NCBI GenBank assembly: GCA_046485285.1
Contig: JAWOHE010000015.1
Coordinates: 1-17,328 of the forward strand
Direction of reading: 5' to 3'
Length of the DNA: 17,328 bases
DNA from: a bacterium
GTDB taxonomy: Bacteria; Hydrothermota; Tepidihabitantia; Tepidihabitantales; Tepidihabitantaceae
The notes under the pieces are model-generated. The model was not told the origin of the DNA and made no database searches. It worked only from the letters and a program-made list of their open reading frames with translations. Made by a program: the position numbers and the translations under genes. Within the stretch, counting starts at the first letter, position 1. Each line of letters opens with the position of its first letter. Positions 1-17,191 of the stretch are shown here, in pieces.

Positions 1-2945
1 ATCGAGATGTTCGAGTACGCGGTCCTCGTCGTGTAGCCCGGCCCGACCCAGCCGTTGCCGCAGACCGAGAGCTGGCTGAACCGGCGGCCGTAGAAATAGA
101 ACGGCCCGAACGCGGTCGGGAGATTGAACTGGACCGTCTGGTCGTCCGAGGTGATGGCGAGCCGCGTGCCGACCCCGGCGATGTCCAGCCACTCGAAGGT
201 CGGCGCCTCGCTGTAGAGCGTGTCGGTAGCGTCGTAGGCGTAGTAGAGCGCCGGCGTGCGCGGGCCGTCCGGGGTCGGGTCGCAGGACCGGATGACGCCG
301 ACGTCGATGAGAAAGGCCCGGGTGTAGGTCGCCCCGCCGACCGCGATGACGAGCGTGCAGGGGACCTGGGTCTCGCGCGGGATGCCGGCGTCGGCCCGGA
401 CCCGGAACGGGTCGGCCGGATTCTCGCCAATCGTGTCGCGCGGGATGTCGCCGAAGCTGCCGGTCGAGTCGATGACCGCCAGCCGGGCGTCGCCCGAGCG
501 GAGGACCGCGGTCACCCCGTAGGCGTGGCCCGCGCCGGTGTTGCGGAGCACCGCGACGAGGTCGGCGGTCTCGCCCGGGTCGAGCATCGCGTTGCCGTTC
601 CCGCCCGGCGGCGGGTCGACGACCCGGTTCGCCTCGTAGTCGAGCACCGGCGCGCCGACCGCGAGGGTGAGCGGTGTCTCCCAGACGGAATCGTTGGCGT
701 CGCGGGTGCTGACCGTGAAGCGGAGCGCGTAGCGGTTGGTGCAGGCGGTCGCGACCGCGAAGCCGAAACCTTCCGCGCCGGTGAACGCCGAATCGCCGGC
801 CGCGATGCTCCCGAAGCTCTTCACCGAATCGCTGAGAGTGATGTTCGGGTCCTGCGCCCGGAGCCGGGTCACGACGCCCTCGGCCGCGCCCGAACCCCAG
901 TTCTTGACCCACATCGGCAGGTTGATGGTCTCGCCCGGGTTGATGATGCCGTCGTTGTTGCCGCCGGCCGAGTCGTCGACGACGTGGCGGAGGTGCATCA
1001 CGTACGGCCCGCTCGAGGGCAGGGCGAGGCAGGCGCCGAGGTGCGGCGTGAGGTCATGGCCGGTGACGGTCACGTAGACCGAGTCGGGCGCGAGGCTGCT
1101 GACGATGAGGGTGACCTGGCCCGACGCATCGGTGTAGCCGGCCGCGTGGACGGTCGTGTCGCCCTTCGCCATCGCGCAGACGAGCGCGTTCTCGACCGGC
1201 GCGAAACCGGCGCTGACGCTGACCGGCATCGGGTAGGTCCCGAGCGGGATCACCGGCGGGTAGCTGACCGCGAGCTCGGCCGGCTCGTGGGCGTAGACGT
1301 CGATCGCGCCGTCACCCATCAGGTTGTACATTTCGAGGTAGCGCCGGGTCATCCCGGTGTTGCCCATCTGGGCGAAGTACCAGAGCTTGGCCCGGTTGAA
1401 GCCGCCCATTATCCAGTGCCGGGACGAATCGAACATGCAGTCGAAGACCCGGCGCTCGAGCGTGTCGTCCTCGGTCCAGTAGGAGTTGACGGTCGAGGCG
1501 ATGTGCGAGAGCGCGCCGCGCCGGCCGTTGCGGATCCACGCCTCGGAGAAGCACTCGCCGTAGGTGTAGTCGCCCGAGATACAGGCGAAGGTCTGGACGT
1601 ACGGGACGAGGTCAGTGTTGGCGAGCGCGCGGACGTTCGAGTTCGAGAAGTTGCAGTCGGCCCAGCTCGTCGTGCTGCCGTGGCCGGAGTAGGTCACCCA
1701 GGACCGGCCGGTGTTGATCGCCTCGGTTATCGGCGTGCCCTGGCTGTAGTAGAGCCAGAGCGAGTCGCACGCGACCCCGTCCGCCCGGAGCTTGGCCATC
1801 ACGTACTGGTGGGTCCGTTCGGCGACCTGGTGGTTGCCGCCGTCCGATGACGCGATGAAATAGGCCTTGTTCAGCCAGCCGGTGCCGCCCGTGCCGCCGG
1901 CCTGCTCGTAGGTCACGATGTTCGCGACCAGGCTGTCGAGCTGGTCCGGGTTCGCCACCGACGCCCGCGACAGGTCGACGTCGGGCAGGTAGTCGTCGCC
2001 GTCGAGCATCGCGAAGTTCAGGTCGGTCGGCGGACTGCCGGTGCCCTGGCCGGTGAAATAGCCGATTCGGTCGACGTCGCCGACAAGCAGGACCTGGCTG
2101 GGCGGAATCGGCCAGTTGTCGTAGGCGTCCTGGAGGTACGCCCGGACCGTGTTCGCCTGCCCGCCGCCGACCTGGCTCAGGGTACGGACGAAGACGCTGT
2201 AGCCCTTGCGCCGGCGCCACTCGGCGAGCGGCCGGACACTCGGCTCCCACTCGTCGGGCACGATGACCAGCCAGCCGACCGGCAGGTCGGGCGGCGCGAA
2301 ATCGAACCGGCCCGCGTTCGCGACGACGCCGTCGAGCCGCCCCCGGAACCCCGGAGAATCGTAGCGCCGGTGCCGCGCCCGGGTCCGGCCGAGGTCGGCG
2401 CCGGTCCAGCGAACCGTCACCCGGACCTCCTCGTGGAGTTCAAGCGTCCCGGTCACCGGGTTGTACCGCGCCGGCAGGACCTCGACCAGCGCGAGCCGGT
2501 GCCCGCGCATCGTCCCGGCCTCGACGAACCGGGCGCCGACCTCGCCGTGCCACGCATCGAGCGCGTAGAGCTTCGCGTCGAACGCGAAGCCGGGCCGCGG
2601 TCCGCTCTTCGGTACCGGCTCCTGGCGCGGGGCCAGCGGCCGTTCGAGCCGAAGGACAGTCGCCGCGCCTGCCTCGACCACGAGCTCGACCTCGGCGCCG
2701 AGCGGGACCTCGATGAGCCGGCGGTAGACCGGCAGGGCCGGCGCGCCGGGCTCCCCGGTCACCCCGGCGCCGGGCAGGTCGAGCCGGACGAACTCGCCGC
2801 CCTCGAGCGTCACCGGGTCGGGAACCGCGGCCGCCGCGTTCACGGTCAAGAGGCCGCCGTCGGCCCGGTCCTGCCACGTAACCGGCCCGGCGGCCGGCGC
2901 GGCGGACAGGCCGACGAGGACCAGAACGAATGTCGAAAGGCGCAT
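1..2945 (-). CDS. Gingipain-like C25 family cysteine peptidase (signal peptide, C25 propeptide, catalytic domain, C-terminal Ig-like repeats); 3' end runs off the window
   Basis: Not in the ORF track because it has no stop in the window. Hand translation from ATG 2945 (GGAGG at 2957-2953) gives signal peptide MRLSTFVLVLVGLSAAPAAG, propeptide motifs GEPGAPALPVYRRLIEVP and PARYNPVTGTL, and catalytic-domain motifs LAEWRRRKGY, VLLVGDVD, TDLNFAMLDGDDYLPDVDLSR, TYSGHG (His) and FACISGDY (Cys). Two NDG..PGET-type repeats follow. Confidence 0.92.
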   Translation of the reverse strand, partial: MRLSTFVLVLVGLSAAPAAGPVTWQDRADGGLLTVNAAAAVPDPVTLEGGEFVRLDLPGAGVTGEPGAPALPVYRRLIEVPLGAEVELVVEAGAATVLRLERPLAPRQEPVPKSGPRPGFAFDAKLYALDAWHGEVGARFVEAGTMRGHRLALVEVLPARYNPVTGTLELHEEVRVTVRWTGADLGRTRARHRRYDSPGFRGRLDGVVANAGRFDFAPPDLPVGWLVIVPDEWEPSVRPLAEWRRRKGYSVFVRTLSQVGGGQANTVRAYLQDAYDNWPIPPSQVLLVGDVDRIGYFTGQGTGSPPTDLNFAMLDGDDYLPDVDLSRASVANPDQLDSLVANIVTYEQAGGTGGTGWLNKAYFIASSDGGNHQVAERTHQYVMAKLRADGVACDSLWLYYSQGTPITEAINTGRSWVTYSGHGSTTSWADCNFSNSNVRALANTDLVPYVQTFACISGDYTYGECFSEAWIRNGRRGALSHIASTVNSYWTEDDTLERRVFDCMFDSSRHWIMGGFNRAKLWYFAQMGNTGMTRRYLEMYNLMGDGAIDVYAHEPAELAVSYPPVIPLGTYPMPVSVSAGFAPVENALVCAMAKGDTTVHAAGYTDASGQVTLIVSSLAPDSVYVTVTGHDLTPHLGACLALPSSGPYVMHLRHVVDDSAGGNNDGIINPGETINLPMWVKNWGSGAAEGVVTRLRAQDPNITLSDSVKSFGSIAAGDSAFTGAEGFGFAVATACTNRYALRFTVSTRDANDSVWETPLTLAVGAPVLDYEANRVVDPPPGGNGNAMLDPGETADLVAVLRNTGAGHAYGVTAVLRSGDARLAVIDSTGSFGDIPRDTIGENPADPFRVRADAGIPRETQVPCTLVIAVGGATYTRAFLIDVGVIRSCDPTPDGPRTPALYYAYDATDTLYSEAPTFEWLDIAGVGTRLAITSDDQTVQFNLPTAFGPFYFYGRRFSQLSVCGNGWVGPGYTTRTAYSNIS

Positions 2946-3046
2946 CCTGCTACCTCCTGGCCAGGGCTCGGGGCTCCCGGCCGTGAATACCGACTCCCGG
3001 CCTATCGAACAGGTCCCCGGCGCTCCGGGGACTCGCAAGCAAGCCA

Positions 3047-3074
3047 ATTCTACCGCCGGGGCCGGGCCGGTCAA
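3047..3074 (-). promoter_or_regulatory. sigma70-like promoter for the C25 peptidase gene
   Basis: TTGACC (3074-3069), 16-nt spacer, TAGAAT (3052-3047). Confidence 0.7.
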
Positions 3075-3087
3075 CGCAATCTCTCCC

Positions 3088-3115
3088 TTGACCGCCCGCC
3101 CGGCCGGAGTATTAT
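3088..3115 (+). promoter_or_regulatory. sigma70-like promoter for the T9SS-CTD protein gene (back-to-back with the peptidase promoter)
   Basis: TTGACC (3088-3093), 16-nt spacer, TATTAT (3110-3115). Confidence 0.7.
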
Positions 3116-3176
3116 GGCGTGCAGGATGGCCAATGTCGTCCTGGAGTTTCCGCGAAATGCAAAAGGAGGAGTCACC

Positions 3177-4904
3177 ATGCGCAAGACCGTAGTCTTGGCG
3201 CTCGTGCTCGCCGCCGGCCTCGTCCTCGCCGGCAACGAGCAGTGGATCGGGACCCCGTCCCAGGTCCGCTACGACATCCCGAACCCCGAGCCCGGGATCT
3301 TCCCGATGGGCCCGGACGTCTTCCGCCCCGCGCTCGATACCTTCAAGTACGACGATGGAATGCCGGCCAGCGCCTGGGCCTGGAACACCGTCGGCAGCGG
3401 CTGGGGAATGAAGTTCATGGCCCCGGCCGACAACTTCACCGTCGCCGGCGCGCTCGTCCACTTCTACTCCGGCTGGCCGATTCCCGGCGGCACGCGGGCG
3501 ATGGTCAAGCTGTTCGCCGACGACGGACCGGGCGGCTCGCCCGGCACCCAGCTCTGGACCTCGGACACGGTCACCGTCGTGATGGGCCAGTGGAACTACG
3601 TGCCCATCGGCGAGGCCGTCATCGGCAGCAACTACTACATCTTCTACGTCCAGGTCGACTCCTACCCGACCTGCCCGGGGATGTCGATCGACGCGTTCAA
3701 CAACGCGCCCTCGGGCCGCAAGTGGGCGTACAGCGGCACCAGCTTCGCCGAAGACCTCCGCCGCGGCGACTGGCTCATCCGCTCGGTCGTCGACTGGTCG
3801 CCGCAGGCGGTCAACGCCAGCGCGCTCTACTTCGCCGCGAGCATGCCGCCCGACACGACCCCGGACATCAACCTCTTCATCCGGGCGATGATCAAGAACC
3901 TCGGGACCGACAACCTGCCCGCCGGCACGCCGGTCCGGCTCAAGGTCACCGGCCCGCAGAGCTACGCCTACGAGGACACGATGCTGACGACCGCGATGCT
4001 CGCTCGCGGCCAGCAGGTCCAGATGAACTTCTCGCCGGCCTGGCGCGTCCCCACGACCTCCGGCCTCTACACCATCAAGGTCTGGCCCGAGGCCGCGGGC
4101 GAGCAGTACCCGGCCGACGACACCATCGCCTACGCGCTCAGTGTCGCGCGCTGGATCGAGTACGCCAACTTCAACGCCCTGAACTGGCTGACCTGGCAGG
4201 GCCGGGCCCGGGCGACCAAGTTCGACCCGGGGCACTTCAACGTCCAGTACCCGGTCGGCCTCGGCCGGGTCCGCCACCAGTTCTACTCCCACCCGAGCTA
4301 CCCGTGGCCGGATTCGAGCTTCCTGTTCCAGATCTACGCTGACGACGGAATGACCCTGCTCTACGAGAGCCCGGAAGTCGAGGCCCGGCCCGGCACGCCC
4401 GGCGCCGCGGTCGCCTACGACCTCGACTCGCTCCTTGTCTTCCCGTCCGGCGAGTTCTACGTCGCCATCTACCCGGTCAGTTCGACCGGCCACCCGTCCT
4501 CCTGCGCCGACGACACCAGCGAAGGCCGCAGCTTCGCCGGCCAGCCCGGCGCCTGGGCGCCGTGGACCAACGGTGAGTTCTTCACCTCGGCCTCGGTCCA
4601 GGGCGGCGTCGGCATCAGCGAAGGCGAGCGCCGCTACGTCGGCCAGCCGACGCTGTCGGTCACCGGCTACCCCAACCCGGTCGCCGACTTCCTGACCGTC
4701 AAGTGGAGCGTCCCGCGCAAGCAGGTGGTCAGCGTCGGGCTCTTCGACGCCACCGGCCGGCTCGCACACAACCTCTACTCCGCGAACGGCGGCCCGCTCA
4801 ACGGGGCGGTGGCGCTTGACGTCCGGGCATTCCCGGCCGGCGTCTACCTCCTCAGGCTCGAAACCGAGGACGGCGCCGCGACACGCAAACTCGTCCTCCG
4901 CTAG
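3177..4904 (+). CDS. Secreted beta-rich protein with a CARDB/Ig-like segment and C-terminal T9SS type A sorting domain (575 aa)
   Basis: True start is ATG 3177 after AAAAGGAGGA (3161-3170). Signal peptide MRKTVVLALVLAAGLVLA; two related jelly-roll-like domains; C-terminus YPNPV...LFDATGR...PAGVYLLRLE...TRKLVLR, typical of Por/T9SS CTDs. Confidence 0.88.
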   Translation: MRKTVVLALVLAAGLVLAGNEQWIGTPSQVRYDIPNPEPGIFPMGPDVFRPALDTFKYDDGMPASAWAWNTVGSGWGMKFMAPADNFTVAGALVHFYSGWPIPGGTRAMVKLFADDGPGGSPGTQLWTSDTVTVVMGQWNYVPIGEAVIGSNYYIFYVQVDSYPTCPGMSIDAFNNAPSGRKWAYSGTSFAEDLRRGDWLIRSVVDWSPQAVNASALYFAASMPPDTTPDINLFIRAMIKNLGTDNLPAGTPVRLKVTGPQSYAYEDTMLTTAMLARGQQVQMNFSPAWRVPTTSGLYTIKVWPEAAGEQYPADDTIAYALSVARWIEYANFNALNWLTWQGRARATKFDPGHFNVQYPVGLGRVRHQFYSHPSYPWPDSSFLFQIYADDGMTLLYESPEVEARPGTPGAAVAYDLDSLLVFPSGEFYVAIYPVSSTGHPSSCADDTSEGRSFAGQPGAWAPWTNGEFFTSASVQGGVGISEGERRYVGQPTLSVTGYPNPVADFLTVKWSVPRKQVVSVGLFDATGRLAHNLYSANGGPLNGAVALDVRAFPAGVYLLRLETEDGAATRKLVLR

Positions 4905-7632: not shown

Positions 7633-9219
7633 TCACGACCCGTGCCGACGGTGCCACTCCTTCCAGAGCCGGCCCCGGCAGCCCTCCAGCGCCCGGTGGC
7701 TGCCGATCTGCTCCAGCTCCGTCTGCAGCCCCGTGATAGCGGCCTCCCCGGGGCGCAGCCGCCGGGTGCCGCGATGCCGCTCATACCAGTCTACGGCCCG
7801 GTTCAGCAGCACCAGCTCCTTCGCGGTCCACCTGGTCTTGGGCCAGCGCTCGCCGAGGCCGTGGGCCAGCTTCCGCACGCGGTCCCGGACGGCAATCCGG
7901 GTCCGGGCGGCCCGGTCGCGGTCCTGGACCGACCCCGGCTTCTCGGAATCGGGTTTGAACAGCTCCTCGTAACAGGCATCACCGGCTTCGTTCGCGGTAG
8001 GGTAGCGCCCGCTGACTACGCCCCGCGCATACTTCTGCAGCGTCCGGTCCTGCCGGGCGGTCCAGCGCGGGTTGACGGTACGTCCGGCCTTTTGCGACAT
8101 GATGCACAGGTAGCTCCGCAGCGTCACAAGGGTGCGCTCGCGGTACGACTTGCGCCGCGCCGGGTCGCTCCGGTTCAGCCGCGCGTGCAGTTCCCGCAGC
8201 TCTCGATGGCAGTCCCGCGCAACCTGCCGTAGCGTGGGCGGGTTCGGCCGGACCAGCCGGCGGACGTGGCGGTCCAGTATTCGCTTCTCTCCGGGGAGCC
8301 AGAGCCGGGCGCGCCACGACCAGCCCAGCCCGCCGGCCCGCTGGGACAACTGGTCGCGGAGCGACTTCAGGTCGCGCGCCGGCGGAATGCTCTGCCCACG
8401 GCACCTGCTGCGCCGTCGGTCCAGGTCGTGGCGGCAGTCCCGGGCTGCGACGATCGGGTCCCGGTATCGGCCCTGCACCAGCGCCTGCACGTAATCGTCA
8501 ATGATGGCCTGTTCCCAATCCTTGTACCGGGTTCGCCAAGCCGGCCGCCCTGCAGCGTGAGCCAGCCTCCACAGCCGTTCGCTGACGGCCTTGAGCGTAC
8601 GCGGCCGGGCCGGGGCGAGTGCACCGGGTTGCTGCCGGTTCAGCCGCGCGAGTTCCCTGGCACAAGCGGTGGCTGCCTCTTCGGAATTACGGAAACGGCC
8701 GTCCAGCAACCCCTGCGCGAACCGCTCGGCGACGCTCGTCTCTTCCGGGCTCCACCGGGTACGGTGACCGTGATGGCGAGACCCCGCGGTTCGCCGAGCG
8801 ATGGCGTGGTCCACCACCTCGATGTTCCGTGGTCCTCCGGGCGGTCGTGCCGACTCGGGCAGTCGCTCAAACCGTTCCAGACAGACACGCGCAACGCTGA
8901 GGACCGACTCGTATCGTCCTGCGGCGAACTCCCGGGCACAGCGGTCCATGACTCGTTCCTCGGCGGCGGTCCAGGGCCTGTGGCCACGACGTCCGGCCTC
9001 CCTCAGCCGGGCGTACAGACGCTTGTGGACGGCATGCTCGGTCCGGATGAAGCCCGGGCGACGCTTCAGCTCCCGATAGCAGCGGGACGCGGCCTCGCGG
9101 GCCGAGTCGAACCTGCCCGACAGCACCTGCTGCACGTACCGCTCCAGCACCCGGCTCTCAGCAGGCGACCAGGGAGCGGACGCGGCCCGGCGCCTGTCCG
9201 CCATCGGCCTACGGCTCAC
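7633..9219 (-). CDS. Arg-rich hypothetical protein with seven Myb/SANT-like helix-turn-helix repeats (start may be ATG 9204)
   Basis: Repeats begin WSPAESRVL, WTAAEERVM, WSPEETSVA, YKDWEQAII, WLPGEKRIL, WTARQDRTL and WTAKELVLL; most continue G(R)(F/Y)...A..C..EL...RT..AV..RL. Confidence 0.75.
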   Translation of the reverse strand: MSRRPMADRRRAASAPWSPAESRVLERYVQQVLSGRFDSAREAASRCYRELKRRPGFIRTEHAVHKRLYARLREAGRRGHRPWTAAEERVMDRCAREFAAGRYESVLSVARVCLERFERLPESARPPGGPRNIEVVDHAIARRTAGSRHHGHRTRWSPEETSVAERFAQGLLDGRFRNSEEAATACARELARLNRQQPGALAPARPRTLKAVSERLWRLAHAAGRPAWRTRYKDWEQAIIDDYVQALVQGRYRDPIVAARDCRHDLDRRRSRCRGQSIPPARDLKSLRDQLSQRAGGLGWSWRARLWLPGEKRILDRHVRRLVRPNPPTLRQVARDCHRELRELHARLNRSDPARRKSYRERTLVTLRSYLCIMSQKAGRTVNPRWTARQDRTLQKYARGVVSGRYPTANEAGDACYEELFKPDSEKPGSVQDRDRAARTRIAVRDRVRKLAHGLGERWPKTRWTAKELVLLNRAVDWYERHRGTRRLRPGEAAITGLQTELEQIGSHRALEGCRGRLWKEWHRRHGS

Positions 9220-9229
9220 GGCTGACGGC
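9200..9229 (-). repeat. Heptamer array (3' arm) overlapping the stop codon of four-helix-bundle gene B
   Basis: Minus strand GCCGTCA GCCGTGA GCCGTAG GCCGATG GC. Confidence 0.85.
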
Positions 9230-9568
9230 TCCGTACAGCCTCGCCAGCATCTTCTTCACGCTCTCGTACTTGCCGTCGAGCTTCTGATGCTCGGCGTCGG
9301 TGATGTAGCCCAGTGACCGCGAGAGGTGCAGTTGGTAGCGGACTTCTTCACACGACCCCACCGCGACGTTGACGAACTGGGCGAACCCCTTCGCTCCGGC
9401 TCTGGCTGCACCTTCCGCCAGGTTCATCGGTATGGACGCCGCCGCCCGACGCATCTGCCCGGTCAGCCCGAACATCTCCGACTTGGGGAACCTGGCTGTG
9501 ACGCGGTACACGTCCGGCACAAGCTGGTCCGCCAACTGGAACACCTCGTACTTCCTGACGTCTCTCAT
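9209..9568 (-). CDS. Four-helix-bundle protein (23S rRNA intervening-sequence protein / Avd-like family), copy B
   Basis: YEVFQLADQLV..VYRVT..FPKSEMFGLTGQMRRAAASIPMNLAEG...F..F...A.GS..E..YQL family pattern; GAGGAG RBS upstream. Confidence 0.95.
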   Translation of the reverse strand: MRDVRKYEVFQLADQLVPDVYRVTARFPKSEMFGLTGQMRRAAASIPMNLAEGAARAGAKGFAQFVNVAVGSCEEVRYQLHLSRSLGYITDAEHQKLDGKYESVKKMLARLYGAVSREP

Positions 9569-9621: not shown

Positions 9622-9702
9622 ACCCTTGGCCTTCGGCAGTTTTTTGTGCAGAGCCTGCCCTGAGCTTGTCGAAGGGTCCAGCATCCGCTCGACCAACTTC
9701 AC
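9622..9702 (-). pseudogene. Relic fragment of a Type IIG RM C-terminus (copy 3)
   Basis: Translates VKLVERMLD[PSTSSGQA]LHKKLPKAKG, versus VELVERMLELHKRLPKAKG at the end of the intact RM gene. Confidence 0.85.
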
Positions 9703-9977
9703 GCCTGCGCCGGTATCTGTGGCCGCCGCTTGTACTGCCCGCACCGGGCCTGCCAGGCATAGTAGCTTGAGCGCCGAACCCGCAGCAAGCGGCAGAGCCT
9801 CTGCACCGGCAGACGGTTTGACCCGAAGGCCACGAGGCGGAAACGCTGGTCGTAGGTGGCGCGGGTGATGACACTGGCGTCGACGAGGCGCTCGACCTCG
9901 CGGCTGAGAACAGCGTTCTCCTGCCTCAGCCGTTCATTCTCCTGCCGGAACCTGGCGTCGCTGGGCTTCCTGCGCAT
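9699..9977 (-). mobile_element. IS3-family transposase fragment (OrfA coiled-coil end joined to OrfB N-terminus), no catalytic domain
   Basis: ENERLRQENAVL...RFRLV...LPVQRLCRLLRVRRSSYYAWQAR matches the IS3 orfA/orfB junction pattern; no DDE region and no terminal inverted repeats seen. Confidence 0.7.
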
Positions 9978-9987
9978 TCTCGCTCCT

Positions 9988-10188
9988 TTCGACAATCGCA
10001 ACCTCCTCCTCCGTCAATCCATACAACTCATACACCAACTCGTCAATCGTCTTGTCCGTCGCGGCAATCTGGCGCTCAATTGTCGCCTTGGCCGCGCCCT
10101 TGGCCTTGGGCAGTTTCTTGTGCAGAGCCTGCCCTGAGCTTGTCGAAGGGTCCAGCATCCGCTCGGGCAGAAGGACCATCCTGTTGTG
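9988..10188 (-). pseudogene. Relic of a Type IIG RM C-terminus (copy 2; within ORF 9934-10218)
   Basis: HNRMVLLPERMLD[PSTSSGQA]LHKKLPKAKGAAKATIERQIAATDKTIDELVYELYGLTEEEVAIVE, colinear with 12355-12531. Confidence 0.9.
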
Positions 10189-10230: not shown

Positions 10231-12327
10231 CTACTCCGGTGCAAAGTGGATTTGCTTGTTGATTCTAGTAAGGGAGCCGCTCAGCACGTTCTTGTGAATC
10301 TGCTCCTCATTATAGCAGCCGATGGCGCTGTTCACCACCTCCGTGGGGATTTGGAGACGGCCTGCTATCCAGCCGCGCTGGCGCCCGAACTCCCGCAGGG
10401 CAGCGAGGCCAAGGAACAGGATAATGTCTGTCAGCTTCCCCGCGAAGGCGTTGACGCACTGTTCCTTCCGTGGGATTAACTCCGACAGTTCACGTGCGGC
10501 CTCGGTCACAGCCTGCTCCACATGTGGGCGCAGGAAGTCGAAGAAGGATACCACAGTTTCCCTGCTCGCTCCGGGCGTCGCGCTCCCATCAAAGTACTTC
10601 AGACCAAGTCCAAAGGGAACGGCGAGGAAGGCCGTCAAGGCACCTTGAATGTCGTCCGTGACGGGAGGAGCGAAAGGCAGGTCATAGAGTGGGTCCGTGC
10701 GCATCCAGTAGTCGGAAACTGGTGCGCTCTTCCGGTAGGCGGCGTACATGGGCAAGAACTCCAGCGCGGTCACGCAGTCATCCAGCCGGAAGCCCGAGGT
10801 CCTCAGTGGCACTGTTGGCTGCACTCCCATCAGGCCAAAACACTCTTCGAGGAGTTCCCATGCGGCGTTTTCGTTTCCCGCTTGCGCCTCCAGGCGTACC
10901 AGTCGGCTCCTAGTGTCGTAGTCACGGGGTTCCGCTGAGAGTTTGCCCTTCCAGAAGACCCTAGCCTGCTCGCTCACGTCGGGCGCTGACTTCACCAACT
11001 CTGCGAAGAGCGCAGACTTCAGCCGGTCGAGCGCCAAGTTCCCAGGCTGATGCGCTAGCCCATCTTCGACGTAACGTAGGGCTTCTATCGGCGAACCGCG
11101 CCTTCTGTGAGCCTCTCCCAGCCAGTACCACATGGATGGCCAGTGCGTTGCCAATTGTGGGTCGGAACCTAGCGCGCGCTCCAACAGCGAGGAGGCTTCC
11201 TCTGGCTTGTCGAAGTCCACGAGAAGACTGATGCCCTTGGACGCGAGTGCCTCCGGAAGGAGCGGGTCGAGTTCAAGTGCTCTATCGAAGCACGCCATCT
11301 CGTTCTCGTGGTCGCCTACTTGGTGATAGGCACTGGCAAGATTCTTCCACACCGTGGGACTCTGGGGTTCTACCTCCAATGCTTCCCGATACTGCTTGAT
11401 GGCTTCGACGTACTCCCCCAGTGCGCTAAGGGTATTCGCCAGATTGTATGGTAGCCGCCACTCGGCTGGGTGCCTCGATTTCAGCAGTTGCTCAAACAGC
11501 TGCTTGGCCTCTGAAACGGCGGCTCTATCGCCGTCTCTAATCCCCCTCTGCGCAAGGATGCAGGCGCGCATCGATCGTACCTGACCGGAATCCCTGAGCT
11601 TCCGAGCTCGGTTTATGCTGGCCAGAGCATCGTCATACTGGTGTAGACAGTACTGCGACCAAGCTAGAGCTTGCCAACCCAAGGAGGACTCCGGCTGATT
11701 GTCGAGGTAGGACTTCGATAACGCGGCGGCGCGGTCAAAGTGGCGGGACTCTATGGCTGCCCACGCTTCACCCAGAACCGCGTCGCTTGGTGCGTCATAT
11801 CCAGTAGGCCTCAGCATGCTGCCGGTACCCGCGGGCATATCAACTCCGAGGTACTTCTTTGCGAGGTCCGGGTGTGCTTCCTCGAGCTGCATGCGTAGCC
11901 ACTCCCGTGAGAAGACGATGAGCTGCCACCCATGCTGTTGCCGAAGTTCTGCTTCCAAATTGTCGACGTCTACCCCACGAGCCTTACGATTAGTGACAAA
12001 CACGAAAGTCGAGAAGCTGTGGCCGCCGTTCTTCAGCTTGAGCGCGTCGCGCCGTAGCTTGGCCTTCCAGTCCTGCTCGAGACTGAACTGAAAGAAGGCG
12101 ACATCGCCATCTCGCCCTCGCCCGCTTCTAGGCGATTCCTCAGCATCGCGTCCCCCGTCCTGCGGCTCAATCGGTACTATGTCCTTGTACCCGTTGCGAA
12201 ACAGCAGGTCAACGCAAAGTCGCTCGAAGTGCTTCCCGTCCAACTCCTGGTCTAGAGTCCAGAGGACTTGACTTGTCACTCGCTGACCCTCACCCGAGAT
12301 GTCCGGCATTCGGTGGACACAATCCAC
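10231..12327 (-). CDS. N-terminal restriction-endonuclease-like (PD-(D/E)XK, Mrr-like) domain + TPR repeat protein; start could be ATG 12309 or GTG 12279
   Basis: FERLCVDLLFRNGY...PQDGGRDA...FFQFS at the N-terminus; multiple TPRs (YNLANTLSALGEYVEAIKQYREALEVEP, WKNLASAYHQVGDHENEMACFDRALELDP); visibly lower GC than the flanks. Confidence 0.82.
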   Translation of the reverse strand: MDCVHRMPDISGEGQRVTSQVLWTLDQELDGKHFERLCVDLLFRNGYKDIVPIEPQDGGRDAEESPRSGRGRDGDVAFFQFSLEQDWKAKLRRDALKLKNGGHSFSTFVFVTNRKARGVDVDNLEAELRQQHGWQLIVFSREWLRMQLEEAHPDLAKKYLGVDMPAGTGSMLRPTGYDAPSDAVLGEAWAAIESRHFDRAAALSKSYLDNQPESSLGWQALAWSQYCLHQYDDALASINRARKLRDSGQVRSMRACILAQRGIRDGDRAAVSEAKQLFEQLLKSRHPAEWRLPYNLANTLSALGEYVEAIKQYREALEVEPQSPTVWKNLASAYHQVGDHENEMACFDRALELDPLLPEALASKGISLLVDFDKPEEASSLLERALGSDPQLATHWPSMWYWLGEAHRRRGSPIEALRYVEDGLAHQPGNLALDRLKSALFAELVKSAPDVSEQARVFWKGKLSAEPRDYDTRSRLVRLEAQAGNENAAWELLEECFGLMGVQPTVPLRTSGFRLDDCVTALEFLPMYAAYRKSAPVSDYWMRTDPLYDLPFAPPVTDDIQGALTAFLAVPFGLGLKYFDGSATPGASRETVVSFFDFLRPHVEQAVTEAARELSELIPRKEQCVNAFAGKLTDIILFLGLAALREFGRQRGWIAGRLQIPTEVVNSAIGCYNEEQIHKNVLSGSLTRINKQIHFAPE

Positions 12328-12336
12328 ATGTGGGGC

Positions 12337-15300
12337 TCATTGCTCGGTCCCGCCTTCTACGGTCCTGACCTCCTCTGCCGTCAGCCCATACAACTCATAC
12401 ACCAGTGCGTCTATGGCCTTGTCCGTCGCGGCAATCTGACGTTCGATGCCGGTCTTCGATTCGCCCTTGGCCTTCGGCAGTCTCTTGTGCAACTCCAGCA
12501 TCCGCTCGACTAGCTCGACCATCCTGTCGTGCCGGGCCTTGTCCTTCTTGTCGGAGAAGTCGATGGTGCGGATAGGAAGCTTCGCCAAGAATTGCCTATT
12601 CGCGGACATCCAACCACCACGAAACGGGGCGCTGATGTGAGGGAAGTACCAAGCCAACAGGCGCGAATTCAGCAACCCGAGTAAGTACAGCAACCCCATA
12701 GAATCGTGGCCGGGTTTGAGGGTAACACCTCCAACATCTACGTTGTCTAAGTAGTGTGATCCGGTTATGTCGACCGTAGCGCGAAGCCGTTCCACTAGTC
12801 GAGGGACACAGATTTTCGCACGACCCTGTATCCCGAGATTTTGGCTACGGCCAAATCGGTACCACCCGGTCCCCCTGAACTTGCCCCCTTCGCGCCTCTC
12901 GAGTCTCTCTTTGTTTTGATCGAGATAGGTCGCCGTCATTGGGAATCTCCTCTTGAGGGCGTCGAACTGCATAAGGGTCGCTGACGGGTCAGCAACCTCG
13001 TAAGGGAAAAGGATATACTGCCGCCAGGGTAACACGCGGTAGCGCCCGATATCTGTTCCGCTCACAAGCGGATGAAGCGCTCCAGGTTCCAGCATTACGT
13101 CTGTCGACAGAGCCTTCGAGTGCAGCCGAACAGCTCCGCTTGTCTTCGCTACGACGTCCAGTATGTACACATCGTCGGCACTGGTCTGGAGGCCGACAAA
13201 GACATCTGCGACCTCTCCCAGCTTCGGGGTCATGCTACGGAGGCTCCCAGCCAGCCTCGCGCCCTTACCGACTGCGAAACTCCATTCTCCTGACAACGAA
13301 GCCTCAGCATCGACAGTTCCCGATTCTGCGGTGCCTTTGGTTAGCCAAGAACCTAAGTCGCCCGGCTTCACCACGCTTACCGAATGGCTGGGAGGTCGAC
13401 CGAGAAACAGCAGGCATGTATAGGTAGTAGCGCCAGAAAAGACCTGTATGTGGCCGAAATGGACTACATGCTTCAGATGCTTGCCATCTACAATGAGAGA
13501 GCGTAATGGTTCACCATACTGCGAGTTGAAGAACTTGTGGGGAAGGATGTAACCGAGGAGCCCGGTCTTGTTCAGGAGGCTGAGCCCTTTCTCTGCGAAC
13601 ACAACGTAGATGTCGTAGTTGCCCTTGGCGGCCGAACGGTAGTGCTTTTTGAAGTAGGGCAGAGATTCGGGCGACCATTCGTTCAGGGCCTGGACGCGAA
13701 TGTACGGCGGGTTGCCGATAACCGCGTCGAAACCGCCTGCCTGTGCGTGTCCGCCCGCAGACAGGCCGGATTTCATTATCTCCGGGAATTCGTGTTCCCA
13801 GTCGAAGGCGTTGATGCGGAGTCGTTCCTCCTCGTCGTCGAACATCGTCTGTTGTTCGCCCTGCCAGAAGTCCGACCCTATCAGGCTGTTACCGCATTTG
13901 ATGTTACTGCTGAGGTCGGGCAAGGCCCGCTCGCGGAACATCTTCTGCTGGAGGCTGATGGTCTGGTCGCTCTCGCCCTCGAGCACCTTGAGCAGAAGGC
14001 TGAGCTTGGTGACTTCGACCGCCTGGGCGTCGATGTCCACGCCGTAAATGTTGTTGAGCAGGATGCGTTTCTTTTCCTGCGTGGTCAGCCGCCACTCCCC
14101 GCCCGGGCCTTCGTAGAGTTCTTTGCGGTGCTTCTCCGGCCCGGCCTTGACGTACTGGTCCCGGTGCCAGTCGAGCAGGTACTGGTACGCGCCGAGCAGG
14201 AACGAACCGGACCCACAGGCCGGGTCGAGGATGCGGAGTCGCGAAGCTCGCGCAGGGGTCAGGGGTCGGGGGGCAGGGGTCGGGGAGTGCGCAGTGCGCG
14301 AATCAGGCCGTTGAGCAGTCTGCCGACGAGTCGCGCCTTCTGCTGCAACTCGGCGGTCTGCGTCGGGCTGAGTATCTGCAGTCGTTCCGCGAGCGTCAGA
14401 TAGGTCTGCAGTTCTGCCAGAGAGCCCCGGCTGATTGAGAGATGATTCAGATAGACCCGGCGGTGGTTGGAACCATGTCCTTCCGCAATGTTCGCAGGTA
14501 TGGAAACGGCCGCTCTGGTCATCTGCGACCGTAGCCCGTACCGCTCGCTTTCGGGCAGCTCCCGGGCCGCGCGGTAGACCAGTTCGACCAGACTCATCGC
14601 TTCCTGCCAGACCCTCAGGTCCTCGTGACTCTGAATCGGTTCCGTCAATGCTCGCCCCTTTCCTCCCCGGACCCTGAACCCTGATCCCTGGTCCCGGGAT
14701 GCTATCGGCAGACGGTATTCCCCGGCATCTCAGACACGTACCGTTGGATTCGGCCGGGTAGCCCCACAGTAATGCTCCGACCGTGTTCTTGACGATGTAG
14801 TCCACGATGTAGGTCGGCGTGTAATAGACCCCGCCCGCCTTGCGGACTTCGGGCTTATCTTCGACCTTGGCCCGGTGACCGGCGGTGAGCCGGATGACCT
14901 TGCCGAGGAACTGCTCATAGACCTGGCCGAGGATGTCGGCCGGAAAGACGCTGAACTCGTACGGGCTCGGGTAGTAGAGCTGGGCGATGACGGTCTTGAG
15001 CACCGCGTCGTCCACTTCGAGGTTCGGGGTGAGGTCGTCCGGCTCCTCGCGGCCGCGCTCGCTGGTGAAGTGGAACAGCCCGGAGTTGTAGCGGTCGTCG
15101 GCCCGGCGGAAGAGCTCGAACAGCCTCGGGTAGACTCGGACGCCGTTGGTGAGCGCCTGCAGGCCGGCGGCCGGCTCGATGCCCCGGTCTTCGCAGATGC
15201 GCAGGAAGATGATGCGGTCGATCGTGCGCTGGACCGCGGCGTTGAGCTCGCGGTCGGTCAGCCGCGGGTTGCGCAGGGCGATGTTGCGGGCGAGGATGTC

Positions 15301-15921
15301 CCGCCAGCGTTCGATGTCCTTGAGGAACTCGGCGTCCACCGGGGTCGTGCCGCGCTTCCTGCCGCTGTCGGAGTAGCGGTCGAACGCGCCCTGCTGGATG
15401 GCCTCGGGCGAGAAGGTGCCGACCAGCTCCTCCCATTCCGCCTCGTAGTCGCGGTAGGGTATCAGCCGCAGGCGGCCCGCCCCGGCCTTGTCGCGCTCGG
15501 TCGGCCGGACCCGGGTGTCATAGACGCTGAACTCCTCGAAGTCGGTGAGGATGGAGACCGGCAGTTTCGCGGTCCAGGCGTAGCGCCGGAGCTGAAACGC
15601 GGGTTTCGGGTCGCGGCCGATGTCGTGGACCGGGGCCTTGGCCTCGACGAAGAACTTGCGCACCCCGCCGATGCGGAAGCAGTAGTCCGGGGCCTTGGTG
15701 GTGCCGCCGACCTTGATGGCGTCCTCGTGGACGACTTCGCGGTAGCGCTGGTCGTAGCCCTTGCGGTTGGCGACGTCCCAGCCCAGCGCCTCGAAGAACG
15801 GGTCGAGGAAGTCTCTTCGGAGCTGAGTCTCGTTATAGGCCGGCGAGTGGTAGGCGCCGAGGTTGCGGTCGAAGGTCTCGACCAGGCGCTTGAGCGTATC
15901 CGGGGCGCGGGTGTCGGCCAT
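12337..15921 (-). CDS. Type IIG (Eco57I-like) restriction-modification enzyme: HsdR_N-like nuclease, N6-adenine methyltransferase, TRD/TaqI-C-like domain; contains a ~166-aa in-frame insert (start ATG 15921 or GTG 15927)
   Basis: PDYCF...FFVEAK nuclease motif, ILGQVYEQFLG, RKAGGVYYTP, motif I ILDPACGSGSFL, NNIYGVDID, IKCGNSL, motif IV GFDAVIGNPPY, YLLGLLNS and IDALVYELYGLT. Confidence 0.95.
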   Translation of the reverse strand: MADTRAPDTLKRLVETFDRNLGAYHSPAYNETQLRRDFLDPFFEALGWDVANRKGYDQRYREVVHEDAIKVGGTTKAPDYCFRIGGVRKFFVEAKAPVHDIGRDPKPAFQLRRYAWTAKLPVSILTDFEEFSVYDTRVRPTERDKAGAGRLRLIPYRDYEAEWEELVGTFSPEAIQQGAFDRYSDSGRKRGTTPVDAEFLKDIERWRDILARNIALRNPRLTDRELNAAVQRTIDRIIFLRICEDRGIEPAAGLQALTNGVRVYPRLFELFRRADDRYNSGLFHFTSERGREEPDDLTPNLEVDDAVLKTVIAQLYYPSPYEFSVFPADILGQVYEQFLGKVIRLTAGHRAKVEDKPEVRKAGGVYYTPTYIVDYIVKNTVGALLWGYPAESNGTCLRCRGIPSADSIPGPGIRVQGPGRKGASIDGTDSESRGPEGLAGSDESGRTGLPRGPGAARKRAVRATVADDQSGRFHTCEHCGRTWFQPPPGLSESSLNQPGLSGRTADLSDARGTTADTQPDADRRVAAEGATRRQTAQRPDSRTAHSPTPAPRPLTPARASRLRILDPACGSGSFLLGAYQYLLDWHRDQYVKAGPEKHRKELYEGPGGEWRLTTQEKKRILLNNIYGVDIDAQAVEVTKLSLLLKVLEGESDQTISLQQKMFRERALPDLSSNIKCGNSLIGSDFWQGEQQTMFDDEEERLRINAFDWEHEFPEIMKSGLSAGGHAQAGGFDAVIGNPPYIRVQALNEWSPESLPYFKKHYRSAAKGNYDIYVVFAEKGLSLLNKTGLLGYILPHKFFNSQYGEPLRSLIVDGKHLKHVVHFGHIQVFSGATTYTCLLFLGRPPSHSVSVVKPGDLGSWLTKGTAESGTVDAEASLSGEWSFAVGKGARLAGSLRSMTPKLGEVADVFVGLQTSADDVYILDVVAKTSGAVRLHSKALSTDVMLEPGALHPLVSGTDIGRYRVLPWRQYILFPYEVADPSATLMQFDALKRRFPMTATYLDQNKERLERREGGKFRGTGWYRFGRSQNLGIQGRAKICVPRLVERLRATVDITGSHYLDNVDVGGVTLKPGHDSMGLLYLLGLLNSRLLAWYFPHISAPFRGGWMSANRQFLAKLPIRTIDFSDKKDKARHDRMVELVERMLELHKRLPKAKGESKTGIERQIAATDKAIDALVYELYGLTAEEVRTVEGGTEQ
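13735..13766. repeat. 30-nt in-frame palindromic micro-insertion in the RM gene
   Basis: Minus strand GCCTGTCTG...CAGGCAGGC stem; adds LSAGGHAQAG between EIMKSG and GFDAVIGNPPY, with a GGC duplication at the ends. Confidence 0.7.
14254..14287 (-). repeat. Heptamer array (3' arm) overlapping the stop codon of four-helix-bundle gene A
   Basis: Minus strand CT CCCCGAC CCCTGCC CCCCGAC CCCTGAC CCCT. Confidence 0.88.
14259..14648 (-). CDS. Four-helix-bundle protein (23S rRNA IVP / Avd-like family), copy A, nested in the +1 frame inside the RM gene
   Basis: IQSHEDLRVWQEAMSLVELVY...LPESERYGLRSQMTRAAVSIPANIAEG.G...Y..HLSISRGSLAELQTYL full family signature; TTG start with purine-rich RBS GGAGGAAAGGGG upstream. 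Confidence 0.95.
   Translation of the reverse strand: MTEPIQSHEDLRVWQEAMSLVELVYRAARELPESERYGLRSQMTRAAVSIPANIAEGHGSNHRRVYLNHLSISRGSLAELQTYLTLAERLQILSPTQTAELQQKARLVGRLLNGLIRALRTPRPLPPDP
14663..14698 (-). repeat. Heptamer array (5' arm) upstream of four-helix-bundle gene A, complementary to 14254-14287
   Basis: Minus strand CCC GGGACCA GGGATCA GGGTTCA GGGTCCG GGGAG. Confidence 0.88.
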
Positions 15922-15977
15922 CTTCACCGGACCGGGAGCCCGGACGGGCGGCGGGGGCGCTGTTTCATCCTGCGCTC

Positions 15978-16006
15978 AGGATAAACCCGGCCGGTTGGGC
16001 TGTCAA
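15978..16006 (-). promoter_or_regulatory. sigma70-like promoter for the RM operon
   Basis: TTGACA (16006-16001), 17 nt, TATCCT (15983-15978). Confidence 0.65.
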
Positions 16007-16052
16007 GCCGTTCGCGCGCCCGCCGCCGACCCCCCCCACCCGCATTCCCAGG

Positions 16053-16280
16053 GCCGCTCCGGGGGCGGTCCGGGTAGCCGCTCCCGGAGCCGTCCCGATA
16101 ACGCTACCCGAAGCGGTCACCCCGGCCGCCCCGGGAACCCTGCCCCCAGCCGCCACCCGGGCCGCCATCCGAGCCGCTCCCCGGGCCGCCCCGGAGGGGG
16201 CCACCGGAGCCGTGGGGGTAGCCAGGGGGGGAACGGCCCCGGGGATGGTCCCGGGGATGGCCCCGGGAATGGGCCGGGGT
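16053..16280. repeat. Degenerate 12-nt tandem repeat, about 19 units
   Basis: Units such as GCCGCTCCGGGG, GCCGCTCCCGGA, GCCGCCCCGGGA, GCCGCCACCCGG, GCCGCTCCCCGG ... ATGGTCCCGGGG, ATGGCCCCGGGA, in strict 12-nt register. Confidence 0.7.
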
Positions 16281-16401
16281 CCCCTGCCGCAACCGGCTAA
16301 CTCCCTAGATTCCGTGCTGTTAGCCCGAAAACCCGGGCGCGTTCCGCGACCGGCCGGAAAATCGGCCGCCCTGGCGGTGTATAACTCAATGAACCGACTC
16401 G

Positions 16402-16668
16402 GGCGCGGGCAGGGCAACAGGAACACCCTCACCCTGACCCTCTCCCTCACACACAAGGGAGAGGGGATGAAACCAGGACGCTGCGATGAGAGCGCGGGCC
16501 GGGCAACCGGAACACCCTCACCCTGACCCTCTCCCTTACACACAAGGGAGAGGGAATGAAACCGGGATGCTGCGATGAGGGCGCGGGCAGGGCAACAGGA
16601 ACACCCTCACCCTGACCCTCTCCCTTACACACAAGGGAGCGGGGATGAAACCAGGATGCTGCGATGAG
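16402..16668. repeat. Three tandem 89-bp repeats, each with a REP-like hairpin (CCCTCACCCTGACCCTCTCCC...GGGAGAGGG)
   Basis: Units 16402-16490, 16491-16579 and 16580-16668 are nearly identical along their whole length. Confidence 0.95.
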
Positions 16669-16983
16669 TTCGTAGGCCGGGCCGGACAGACCGATTGTGT
16701 CCGCAACCGCGGGGAATGCCGCAGGGAGTTGATGAGATGGACAGGCAGACAGTACAGGCCGGGACCGGGGGCGCGGGATGTTGATCCGCTCACTACCCCC
16801 GCGCGACGGCGCGTACCGCTACGCGAGATGGGCCGCCCGGGTGCGCCGGGACAGCCGGGGCCGACTGCCGGACAGTTGTTCCGAGCTGATGGTCGCGCGG
16901 GGCCGGCCGCGGTGCGGGTCAGGCCCCGACCGCCGTCCTCCCACAACCAGCGTCTGCGGTCTCGCCCGCCGCGTCCTCTGCGC

Positions 16984-17011
16984 TTGACAGTCCCCCTCCC
17001 CGCCGCACAAT
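16984..17011 (+). promoter_or_regulatory. sigma70-like promoter upstream of the brnT remnant/brnA
   Basis: TTGACA (16984-16989), 16 nt, CACAAT (17006-17011). Confidence 0.6.
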
Positions 17012-17131
17012 GGGCGGGTGAAGATGGAGAACAGGCCGGGGACCGCTCTTGTGCCCCCGGGACACCTGTCCGCGCTGGGAGGACTGAGGCCGGATTGATG
17101 CGATTCTGCCGCACACATACGGGAAGCGTCG

Positions 17132-17191
17132 CGGGTCTCGGCGCGGAAGGCCGACAAGGACGAAGAAGCGGCCTATTGGAGTCGAGCATGA
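17132..17191 (+). pseudogene. brnT: C-terminal remnant of a BrnT-family toxin
   Basis: RVSARKADKDEEAAYWSRA* matches the BrnT (I)SARKA..E...Y ending; its stop overlaps the antitoxin start (ATGA 17188-17191); there is an in-frame TGA at 17096-17098 and no start codon between. Confidence 0.7.

Follow-up and report, generated by a model that had tools for sequence, protein, structure and literature searches.

We analyzed positions 1 to 17,328 of contig JAWOHE010000015.1 (assembly GCA_046485285.1; Hydrothermota, Tepidihabitantaceae), a stretch of 17,328 nt referred to here as the window. A type IIG restriction-modification (RM) gene in the window carries, within its uninterrupted reading frame, a cassette in which two complementary arms of heptamer repeats enclose a complete gene of the PF05635 (IVP) family, read in a different frame. 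Judged by its sequence features, the element is an intervening sequence (IVS)-type, heptamer-armed cassette. Cassettes of this kind recur inside other genes, including RM genes from several phyla, their host frames are open, and one relative has lost the cassette with an in-frame scar. Most likely, the ribosome translates through the insert, giving a largely disordered loop that keeps the enzyme in frame. An insert removed at the RNA level would be free to have any length and to contain stops, whereas a translated one would have to be in phase and stop-free, which favors read-through.

In the series of events that we propose, a heptamer-armed cassette with a four-helix-bundle gene would have entered a type IIG RM gene at its variable linker. 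The ribosome translating the RM gene would then pass through the leader, the 5' arm, the nested gene (in a frame beginning 1 nt earlier), and the 3' arm, adding a 169-aa, mostly disordered, Gly/Pro/Arg/Ser-rich loop at a permissive interdomain site. The nested protein would be a separate product of the +1 frame, initiated at its own TTG, and ribosomes on the host frame may expose its purine-rich leader, which lies partly in the 5' arm. We infer that the host frame is translated, that the enzyme still works, and that only cassettes with a stop-free alternative frame and a length that is a multiple of 3 persist inside genes.

Anatomy of the insert

The host frame is uninterrupted and overlaps a gene in the +1 frame, as described in a first-pass annotation of the window (Table 1); base 1 of the nested open reading frame (ORF) is base 2 of a host codon. 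In the host protein, the insert is flanked by TVGALL and TPARASRLRILDPACGSG. Alignment of homologues with and without the insert set the junctions relative to the closest empty-site relative, L011 (G184, same bacterial family), which has three residues, EKR, at the insert site. The net gain over L011 is 166 codons, or 498 nt. This is the length that had been proposed for the insert; the coordinates given with it (14263 to 14760) were off by 3 to 6 nt, and the exact insert is 507 nt long.

The linker that received the insert lies between the nuclease/helical half of the enzyme and methyltransferase motif I. It was expected to be only a few residues long, and we counted 5 residues between the flanking columns in 97 of 126 aligned homologues. 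It is also variable: uninserted homologues have up to 56 extra residues, and in L042 (G211:C37), a different palindromic repeat lies in frame at the same RM linker (host frame SPQRGEGG...LERERARVRV). Given this variability, it appears that the linker is a permissive interdomain site. Three GEGQGEG / RERVRVRV-coding repeats similar to those of L042 are also found in the window just upstream of the RM gene (15965-17189).

The arms are 33 nt each, 375 nt apart, and 76% complementary, and the 3' arm overlaps the final codons and TGA stop of the nested gene. Complementary heptamer arms around the nested gene had been noted at the outset, and their predicted RNA duplex (-47.0 kcal/mol, versus -32.2 +/- 3.5 in 200 shuffles; z -4.3) agrees with that description. 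The arms pair in the minimum free energy (MFE) fold of the region. The RNA fold of the whole insert is no better than that of shuffled sequences (z -0.32; 34 of 100 shuffles fold equally well). The units of the window's arms are imperfect, with 4 to 5 variants of GGGNNCA, and the GC content of the insert region is 0.61 to 0.68. The view that the element is a discrete module, lodged in a coding gene whose frame it does not break, was upheld.

The nested protein matches PF05635 along the entire profile (1-106 of 106; E 1.3e-35; 122.3 bits, cut-off 33.8) and TIGR02436 with 115.2 bits (cut-off 24). GC content by codon position is 0.68/0.47/0.74 in the nested frame and 0.74/0.69/0.47 in the host frame; given that the former is coding-like and the latter is not, the nested gene appears to be the primary reading, with the host frame laid over it. 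The nested TTG aligns with the ATG of the corresponding gene in L045 (see below). An individual ribosome-binding site had been ascribed to this gene. A purine-rich stretch is indeed present upstream, but it lies partly in the 5' arm, and the canonical GGAGG is 13 nt from the TTG.

The suggested relation to Avd, the accessory protein of diversity-generating retroelements (DGRs), amounts to weak similarity: the nested protein scored below the cut-offs of both Avd-type models (bAvd, 39.7 bits, cut-off 40; NF033474, 36.9 bits, cut-off 80). We rejected its identification as a DGR Avd on these scores and because the genome's only RVT_1 match is on another contig (G000:C15, 1602-2255). That match adjoins a weak PF05635/Avd-like gene (2832-3131, 29 bits), and the locus, which is distinct from the armed cassettes, is probably a true DGR.

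Nested cassettes recur in protein-coding genes

Ten nested cassettes were read as DNA, from the window, metagenome contigs, and 80 genome loci, and one further cassette was seen as protein only. Every nested example besides the window comes from metagenome assemblies. The genome loci are the best 80 of at least 570 confirmed loci (at least 600 pattern matches) in species-representative genomes, retrieved with an alignment of two nested IVPs as the query. In six of the 80, the IVP lies within a continuous host ORF of 817 to 1225 aa; four of these hosts are type IIG RM genes with the cassette in the same linker (L053, L056, L058, and L059), and L094 and L098 are genes of other kinds (Table 1).

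A metagenome scan with the host-frame insert added L045 and L046, two records that are identical over 7483 nt. The RM frame of L045 is 1373 aa from stop to stop, with the IVP at 3610-3978. The best protein match, P0001 (1215 aa), carries a homologous insert at the corresponding site and has an open host frame there, and P0121 (1265 aa) is the second member of its cluster. An alignment of the host-frame insert gave 20 pattern matches in genome contigs, none of which was confirmed. The cassettes of L057 (RM) and L062 (downstream part Helicase_C_3 plus WYL) are likewise open, with the relative frame seen in the other nested cassettes. The host codon begins 1 nt before the IVP codon in every nested case, and the other alternative frame spans the IVP match in none of the 80 genome loci.

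Other repeats and mobile sequences were seen in frame in RM genes of this type. L044 (G100:C89, 3-3446, minus strand) and L045 (2322-6440) encode a type IIG RM enzyme with an in-frame IS200-like Y1 transposase domain (PF01797, 54.8 and 37.3 bits), located inside the Eco57I methylase domain just before GGFD..NPPY, with repeat-derived peptides on either side. L045 carries both this domain and a nested IVP. In L056, whose RM gene holds a full cassette, a pair of complementary heptamer runs without an ORF is also inserted in frame, downstream of motif I (~1930-2040; host-frame reading GLGVREPGLGVRDSGLG ... PSPGPRAPGP); this pair may be an arms-only derivative.

Table 1. Features of the window and host genes of the nested cassettes found in genome loci
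Feature or locus	Coordinates	Strand	Description	Source
Host gene	12337..15927	minus	Type IIG RM enzyme (Eco57I-like), 1196 aa, no interruption	ORF list, Pfam, PADLOC
Whole insert, host frame	14260..14766	minus	507 nt = 169 aa (aa 388-556), Gly/Arg/Ala/Pro/Ser-rich	
Leader, RM linker to 5' arm	14696..14766	minus	71 nt; host frame WGYPAESNGTCLRC..., first CxxC	
5' arm	14663..14695	minus	Heptamers GGGACCA GGGATCA GGGTTCA GGGTCCG GGGAG; host frame GPGIRVQGPG	
Shine-Dalgarno-like stretch	14655..14666	minus	Purine-rich GGAGGAAAGGGG, 7-18 nt before TTG, partly within 5' arm	Sequence reading
Nested gene	14259..14648	minus	129-aa four-helix-bundle-family protein (PF05635/TIGR02436), TTG start, +1 frame relative to host	
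3' arm	14255..14287	minus	C-rich heptamers (ACCCCTG units); host frame SPTPAPRPL	
Second PF05635 cassette	9209..9568	minus	Free-standing, 119 aa, own complementary repeat arms	
L053			Type IIG RM, 1185 aa	
L056			Type IIG RM, 1225 aa; Phycisphaerae	
L058			Type IIG RM, 1116 aa; Thermodesulfobacteriota	
L059			Type IIG RM, 1129 aa; Verrucomicrobiota	
L094			Cyanobacterial Eco57I-type methylase; cassette located between YYTP and DPACGSG	
L098			DNA polymerase III alpha gene; Terriglobia metagenome-assembled genome (MAG)	

The host frame is open in nested cassettes

From arm to arm, we found no stop codon in the host frame in any of the 10 nested cassettes, while the third frame has 7.5 stops per cassette in nested and free cassettes alike. 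Among the 72 free loci, 58 have clear arms (score >= 13); the other 14 were excluded from the arm-to-arm count. In the host-equivalent frame, these 58 free cassettes have a mean of 5.1 stops, and 7 (~12%) are open. A comparison of inserts for stop-free frames, suggested in the first-pass annotation with codon-shuffled controls, gave 10 of 10 nested versus 7 of 58 free cassettes. The same annotation cautioned that the alternative frame of GC-rich genes is poor in stops; the caution was apt, but with a base rate of open free cassettes of ~12%, it is insufficient as an explanation.

Within the IVP coding part, a host-frame stop requires a codon ending in T followed by a codon starting with AA, AG, or GA. 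Nested IVP genes have no stops in 277 such risky contexts, compared with 286 in 2046 for free IVP genes (n = 76) and 130 in 1161 for those with GC content at third codon positions of >= 0.6. The sequences counted in these contrasts include related ones. The arms of L045, L053, L059, and L098 do contain stop triplets, none of them in the host frame. The third CCCTGAC unit of L098 is CCCTGGC at the very position where a TGA would be in frame, a change that retains a G-U pair with the 5' arm.

An open frame could also arise by chance, if the insertion was a recent event that left the RM gene inactive and the stop-poor alternative frame of a GC-rich gene happened to be open. The 7 open free cassettes, the GC content of the insert region, and a host-frame peptide that is unconserved and predicted to be disordered are all in keeping with such an accident, which we nonetheless regard as very unlikely. 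The expectation per cassette would be ~0.12 x 1/3, the latter factor for phase, whereas 10 of 10 stretches are open. The open cases span at least five separate RM/IVP lineages and two other host genes, and the stretches of the sister pairs L045/L053 and L056/L057 are open despite a synonymous difference of 46 to 48%.

The condition of the host gene also argues against recent inactivation. The 1027 host codons outside the insert contain no stop or frameshift, and the ratio of nonsynonymous to synonymous divergence (dN/dS) relative to uninserted relatives is 0.25 to 0.28, indicative of purifying selection. Pfam matches cover HSDR_N (64-141), Eco57I (625-830), and TaqI_C (953-1119), and the protein scores 801 bits against the PADLOC model REase_MTase_IIG. 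The catalytic motifs PD..EAK (D81, E95, K97), DPACGSGSF, and NPPY are all present and are invariant in the RM homologue alignment. Nuclease, gamma-class N6-adenine methyltransferase, and target-recognition domains are combined in one chain, the arrangement that defines type IIG. To judge from these features, the host enzyme looks alive.

The gene immediately downstream of the RM gene (10231-12327, minus strand, 698 aa) has a weak N-terminal match to PADLOC REase-TIR-PNTD (28 bits), followed by TPR repeats, and may be a further defense gene.

Explanations that involve removal of the insert from RNA

The first-pass annotation presented the element as a candidate mRNA intervening sequence. According to this explanation, the arm stem would be cut by a double-strand-specific RNase, as in 23S rRNA, releasing the RNA of the nested gene and leaving the RM mRNA either severed or spliced by an unknown ligase; the effect would be a lower RM output or two polypeptides. 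The architecture equals that of the Coxiella 23S IVS, as far as the latter is described in the relevant part of PMC4990558. The pairing of the arms in the MFE fold is likewise what such a cut would call for, and the arm duplexes of the 10 nested cassettes have energies of -31 to -77 kcal/mol (z -2.4 to -9.3). Arm sequences diverge between cassettes, yet they remain complementary.

We consider excision improbable. An open frame and a length divisible by 3 would be needless, yet both are found in the window, in seven other cassettes read as DNA, and in the P0001 protein, and the cassette stretches of L057 and L062 are also open, though the host is shifted at an arm. We know of no ligation mechanism in bacteria for such cuts. 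A permissive Rfam search of positions 13900-15100 gave no intron or ribozyme match, nor any other match below E = 1 (the best hit had 17 bits against a gathering score of 47), and the fold of the whole region is unexceptional.

RNase III was not found in the window's own genome, which is 88% complete (PF14622, PF00636), and of 44 genomes in the window's family only one had a PF14622 match, which lies at a contig end. Twenty-nine of the 44 are >= 90% complete and <= 5% contaminated, and the same search was positive in 8 of 14 control genomes. Many of the 44 genomes are more than 95% complete. Either the family has no rnc or it has a very divergent form. The scarcity of RNase III weakens the case for excision here.

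Other ways of hosting or removing an insert were examined and set aside. The element is not at a 23S rRNA location, as it lies inside RM coding sequence and positions 13900-15100 have no rRNA match. A self-splicing group I or II intron was rejected for want of an Rfam match in the same region, and an intein was rejected since no Hint/LAGLIDADG family was found by Pfam. Translational bypass was also considered and rejected, given that removal-based systems need no open, in-phase host frame.

Gain, exchange, and loss of cassettes

The seven RM genes that bear an IVP are scattered in a 126-row tree built from the N-terminal region of the RM protein, which implies 6 changes, at least 3 of them forced by well-supported branches. 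The window's sister is the uninserted P0111, with 87% identity and an SH-aLRT support of 100. The RM gene is a mosaic: compared with L011, the N part has a synonymous divergence (dS) of 0.35 and the methylase part one of 1.0. The tree of IVPs, built from 85 rows and 128 columns, is short and weakly resolved; in it, RM-nested IVPs do not form one clade but fall into several groups mixed with intergenic ones. Synonymous third positions differ by 46 to 61% between nested pairs, from which we conclude that the open frame survived long divergence or was gained several times.

A trace of loss was found in L009 (G223, window's family), where the nested gene is gone and the host peptide PGPKPRPLTP is kept. 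The coding stretch of this peptide contains the end of the window's 3' arm, CCCCGACCCCTGACCCCTGCGC, and we therefore interpret it as an in-frame scar of cassette loss. Together, the trees and the L009 scar indicate that cassettes were gained, exchanged between RM alleles, or lost several times, with the host frame preserved each time.

A scan of the phylum with a 400-aa piece spanning the insert detected the RM family in 54 of 272 genomes, and among these 54 there was no match across the insert except that of the window. A search of sequencing runs for this organism gave six DNA runs with small shares and no RNA run. In four DNA sequencing runs, contigs of 85 to 95% likeness cover the RM flanks and skip the cassette (538 to 552 nt, with ~40 other letters). 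These contigs are uninserted relatives from other organisms, and no piece spans the cassette.

Leader, CxxC pairs, and arm repeats

The 71-nt leader is common to the window, P0001, L045, and L053, with the host-frame reading W(G/D)YPA..(N/D)GTCxxC, and half of its pairwise differences (21/42) fall at host codon position 3. The same four inserts have a second host-frame CxxC, overprinted on the IVP motif PANIAEGHG. This second pair requires the codons CCT and ATT, which are kept in all three DNA copies and are found together in 7 of ~75 free genes.

We modeled the whole host protein with AlphaFold2 (AF2; 81-row alignment). The body has a mean predicted local distance difference test (pLDDT) score of 82.1 and the predicted template modeling score (pTM) is 0.77; the insert is a low-confidence loop, with pLDDT below 50 at 409-473 and 490-547. 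The first-pass annotation had also entertained a disordered loop and dual coding, and both the open frames and this model are consistent with that proposal. The only insert parts with raised confidence are the CxxC segments (~58 to 82 at 388-408 and ~60 at 474-489), with a predicted beta-hairpin at 475-486. When the insert fragment was modeled in isolation (4 sequences), the mean pLDDT was 44.9, too weak for a fold, and the CxxC segments reached 50 to 53. The model suggests that the two CxxC pairs could form a small Cys4 zinc knuckle born by overprinting, which we treat as a lead and not as a finding.

The heptamer arrays offer another possible function. If they gain or lose units, they would toggle the RM frame, and the cassette would act as a contingency switch or phase-variation module, which would be compatible with read-through. 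A change of 7 nt in either direction gives the required frame shift of 1, and Coxiella strains differ in having two or three heptamer units, according to the passage on them in PMC4990558. In L057 and L062, the host frame is shifted exactly at an arm, with the cassette open in a host-compatible frame. The imperfect units of the window, however, disfavor slippage, and both shifted cases lie on short contigs of co-assembled MAGs and possibly are errors. A switch is, in our estimation, a long shot. Taking the knuckle and the toggling arrays together, we think it rather unlikely that the read-through segment is used and not merely tolerated. If either proves true, the cassette would have been domesticated by defense genes as a regulatory or structural module.

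Points that weigh against read-through

Several observations count against translation through the insert. The nested cases were first recognized by their long open frame, so that the comparison with free cassettes is partly circular, and the two checks for closed cases (frame entry and Pfam flanks) are of limited power. We saw no nested but closed cassette by inspection of frame entry or in the Pfam flanks of 44 free loci: among loci where an upstream frame enters the cassette by more than 37 nt, only L057 and L062 lie inside a gene, and no gene was split according to Pfam, which reduces the concern about circularity.

L057 and L062 have a shift at an arm that puts one side of the host gene in another frame. 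Stops or frameshifts in homologous inserts had been named in the first-pass annotation as evidence against an intact module; stops are absent from all 10, and frameshifts are confined to the arms of these two loci. Assembly errors and real off-states are both possible explanations of the shifts. The host-frame peptide is unconserved apart from the leader, and its base composition by codon position is unlike that of coding sequence. Synonymous divergence of the IVP is not clearly reduced in nested pairs (0.46 to 0.61, versus a mean of 0.57 in free pairs of like identity), and the synonymous sites are near saturation in both. A search of a large protein database with the host-frame insert found nothing at E <= 0.001, a result that is uninformative, as P0001 was also missed. 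Finally, the long-range stem of -47 kcal/mol could hinder translation or invite cleavage.

Free cassettes in the same genome and elsewhere

The window's own genome (2.34 Mb) has five PF05635 matches above the cut-off, and each of the four genes besides the nested one has a heptamer run upstream and a complementary run downstream, with a unit that varies from copy to copy. One of these is the second cassette of the window (Table 1), which adjoins an IS3-like orfA fragment (9699-10001). Downstream of it is a 528-aa ORF (7633-9219, minus strand) that starts within the 3' arm and has no Pfam family. PF05635 cassettes are also found directly beside tRNA genes (G000:C65:2501-2797 [L005] and L117), another stable-RNA context besides rRNA.

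Pfam annotation of the flanks covered 44 free loci (88 of 98 ORFs; five near-repeat loci were excluded). Where both flanks had matches, they were separate genes of conserved operons, with junctions that include NuoC|NuoD, OTC|ArgG, MetG|TatD, RuvA|RuvB, CarA|CarB, and AtpA|AtpG. No domain was split across a free cassette in these 44 loci, of which L051 and L084 had no matches and ~20 others were one-sided and are thus less telling. L066 and L115 have the same family on both flanks, each side covering nearly the whole profile. The NuoC|NuoD, OTC|ArgG, and MetG|TatD junctions hold cassettes repeatedly in different phyla. Among free cassettes that we inspected (L063, L072, L114, and L129; L055, L068, and L104), the upstream gene's stop is often the first triplet of the 5' arm (TAGGTGTCAGG...), and in others of this set the upstream gene enters the arm by a few codons (..GVRGEG*).

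DISCUSSION

The findings extend an rRNA intervening-sequence element, 30 years old and unexplained, to protein-coding genes. They also suggest a rule for survival within genes, namely that only one relative frame occurs, that stops are absent, and that the length is a multiple of 3, and they would provide a natural, recurrent case in which a whole gene is overprinted on a translated loop. For annotation, the consequence is that RM genes with such inserts should not be called broken and that the nested gene should be retained, not discarded as a spurious overlap. The cassettes could mark where type IIG enzymes and DNA polymerase have permissive sites, and they offer testable handles on the role of PF05635 proteins and bacterial heptamer repeats. 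We found no literature that describes PF05635 cassettes within coding genes, armed cassettes of this family between operon genes or, outside rRNA, their heptamer arms, in a search with subscription journals outside its coverage; a report on TAACTGA repeats (PMC4679880) does not mention the PF05635 family.

Inteins, group I and II introns, and the translational bypass of T4 gene 60 are known ways to carry foreign sequence within a gene. The window element resembles them in placing foreign sequence within an uninterrupted gene, and it differs in having no Hint or endonuclease domain or ribozyme match and in having a host frame that is open and in phase. Free PF05635 cassettes between operon genes share with it the gene family, the complementary heptamer arms, and co-orientation with the surrounding genes. 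Those cassettes lie after a stop codon and before the next start, whereas the nested cassette of the window is embedded in a run of codons, with constraint in two frames.

Intervening sequences of 23S rRNA genes are located at helix 25 or 45. From these, the window element differs in its host, which is protein coding and not rRNA, in being read stop-free in a second frame by the host ribosome under the interpretation we favor, in its 71-nt leader with a CxxC, and in the presence of RNase III in only 1 of 44 genomes of its family. The likenesses are nevertheless extensive. In the portion of PMC4990558 that deals with the 23S IVS of Coxiella burnetii, inverted repeats at the ends form a 28-bp stem, tandem GACAGAT heptamers precede the S23p ORF, and RNase III excises the element, making its 5' cut at the first repeat. 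The same portion reports ORF-bearing IVSs in Leptospira, Xanthomonas, and Brucella, and it cites the PF05635-family protein Xcc0516 as a pentamer. As far as described there, both kinds of element are ~430 to 510 nt long, with one PF05635 ORF, a terminal inverted-repeat stem around it, tandem heptamers before the start codon, and a weak ribosome-binding site.

The closest parallel within coding genes is provided by the Rickettsia palindromic elements, which, like other miniature inverted-repeat transposable elements, insert in frame into coding genes, according to the section on them in a review (PMC10969869). In both cases, a palindromic mobile element lies in an ORF, the frame is kept, and an extra peptide is added, or would be added, at a permissive site. 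The Rickettsia elements are ~150 bp long, have no gene of their own, and belong to one genus, whereas in the cassettes reported here a complete, conserved 129-aa gene is overprinted on the read-through segment, and the element occurs across many phyla.

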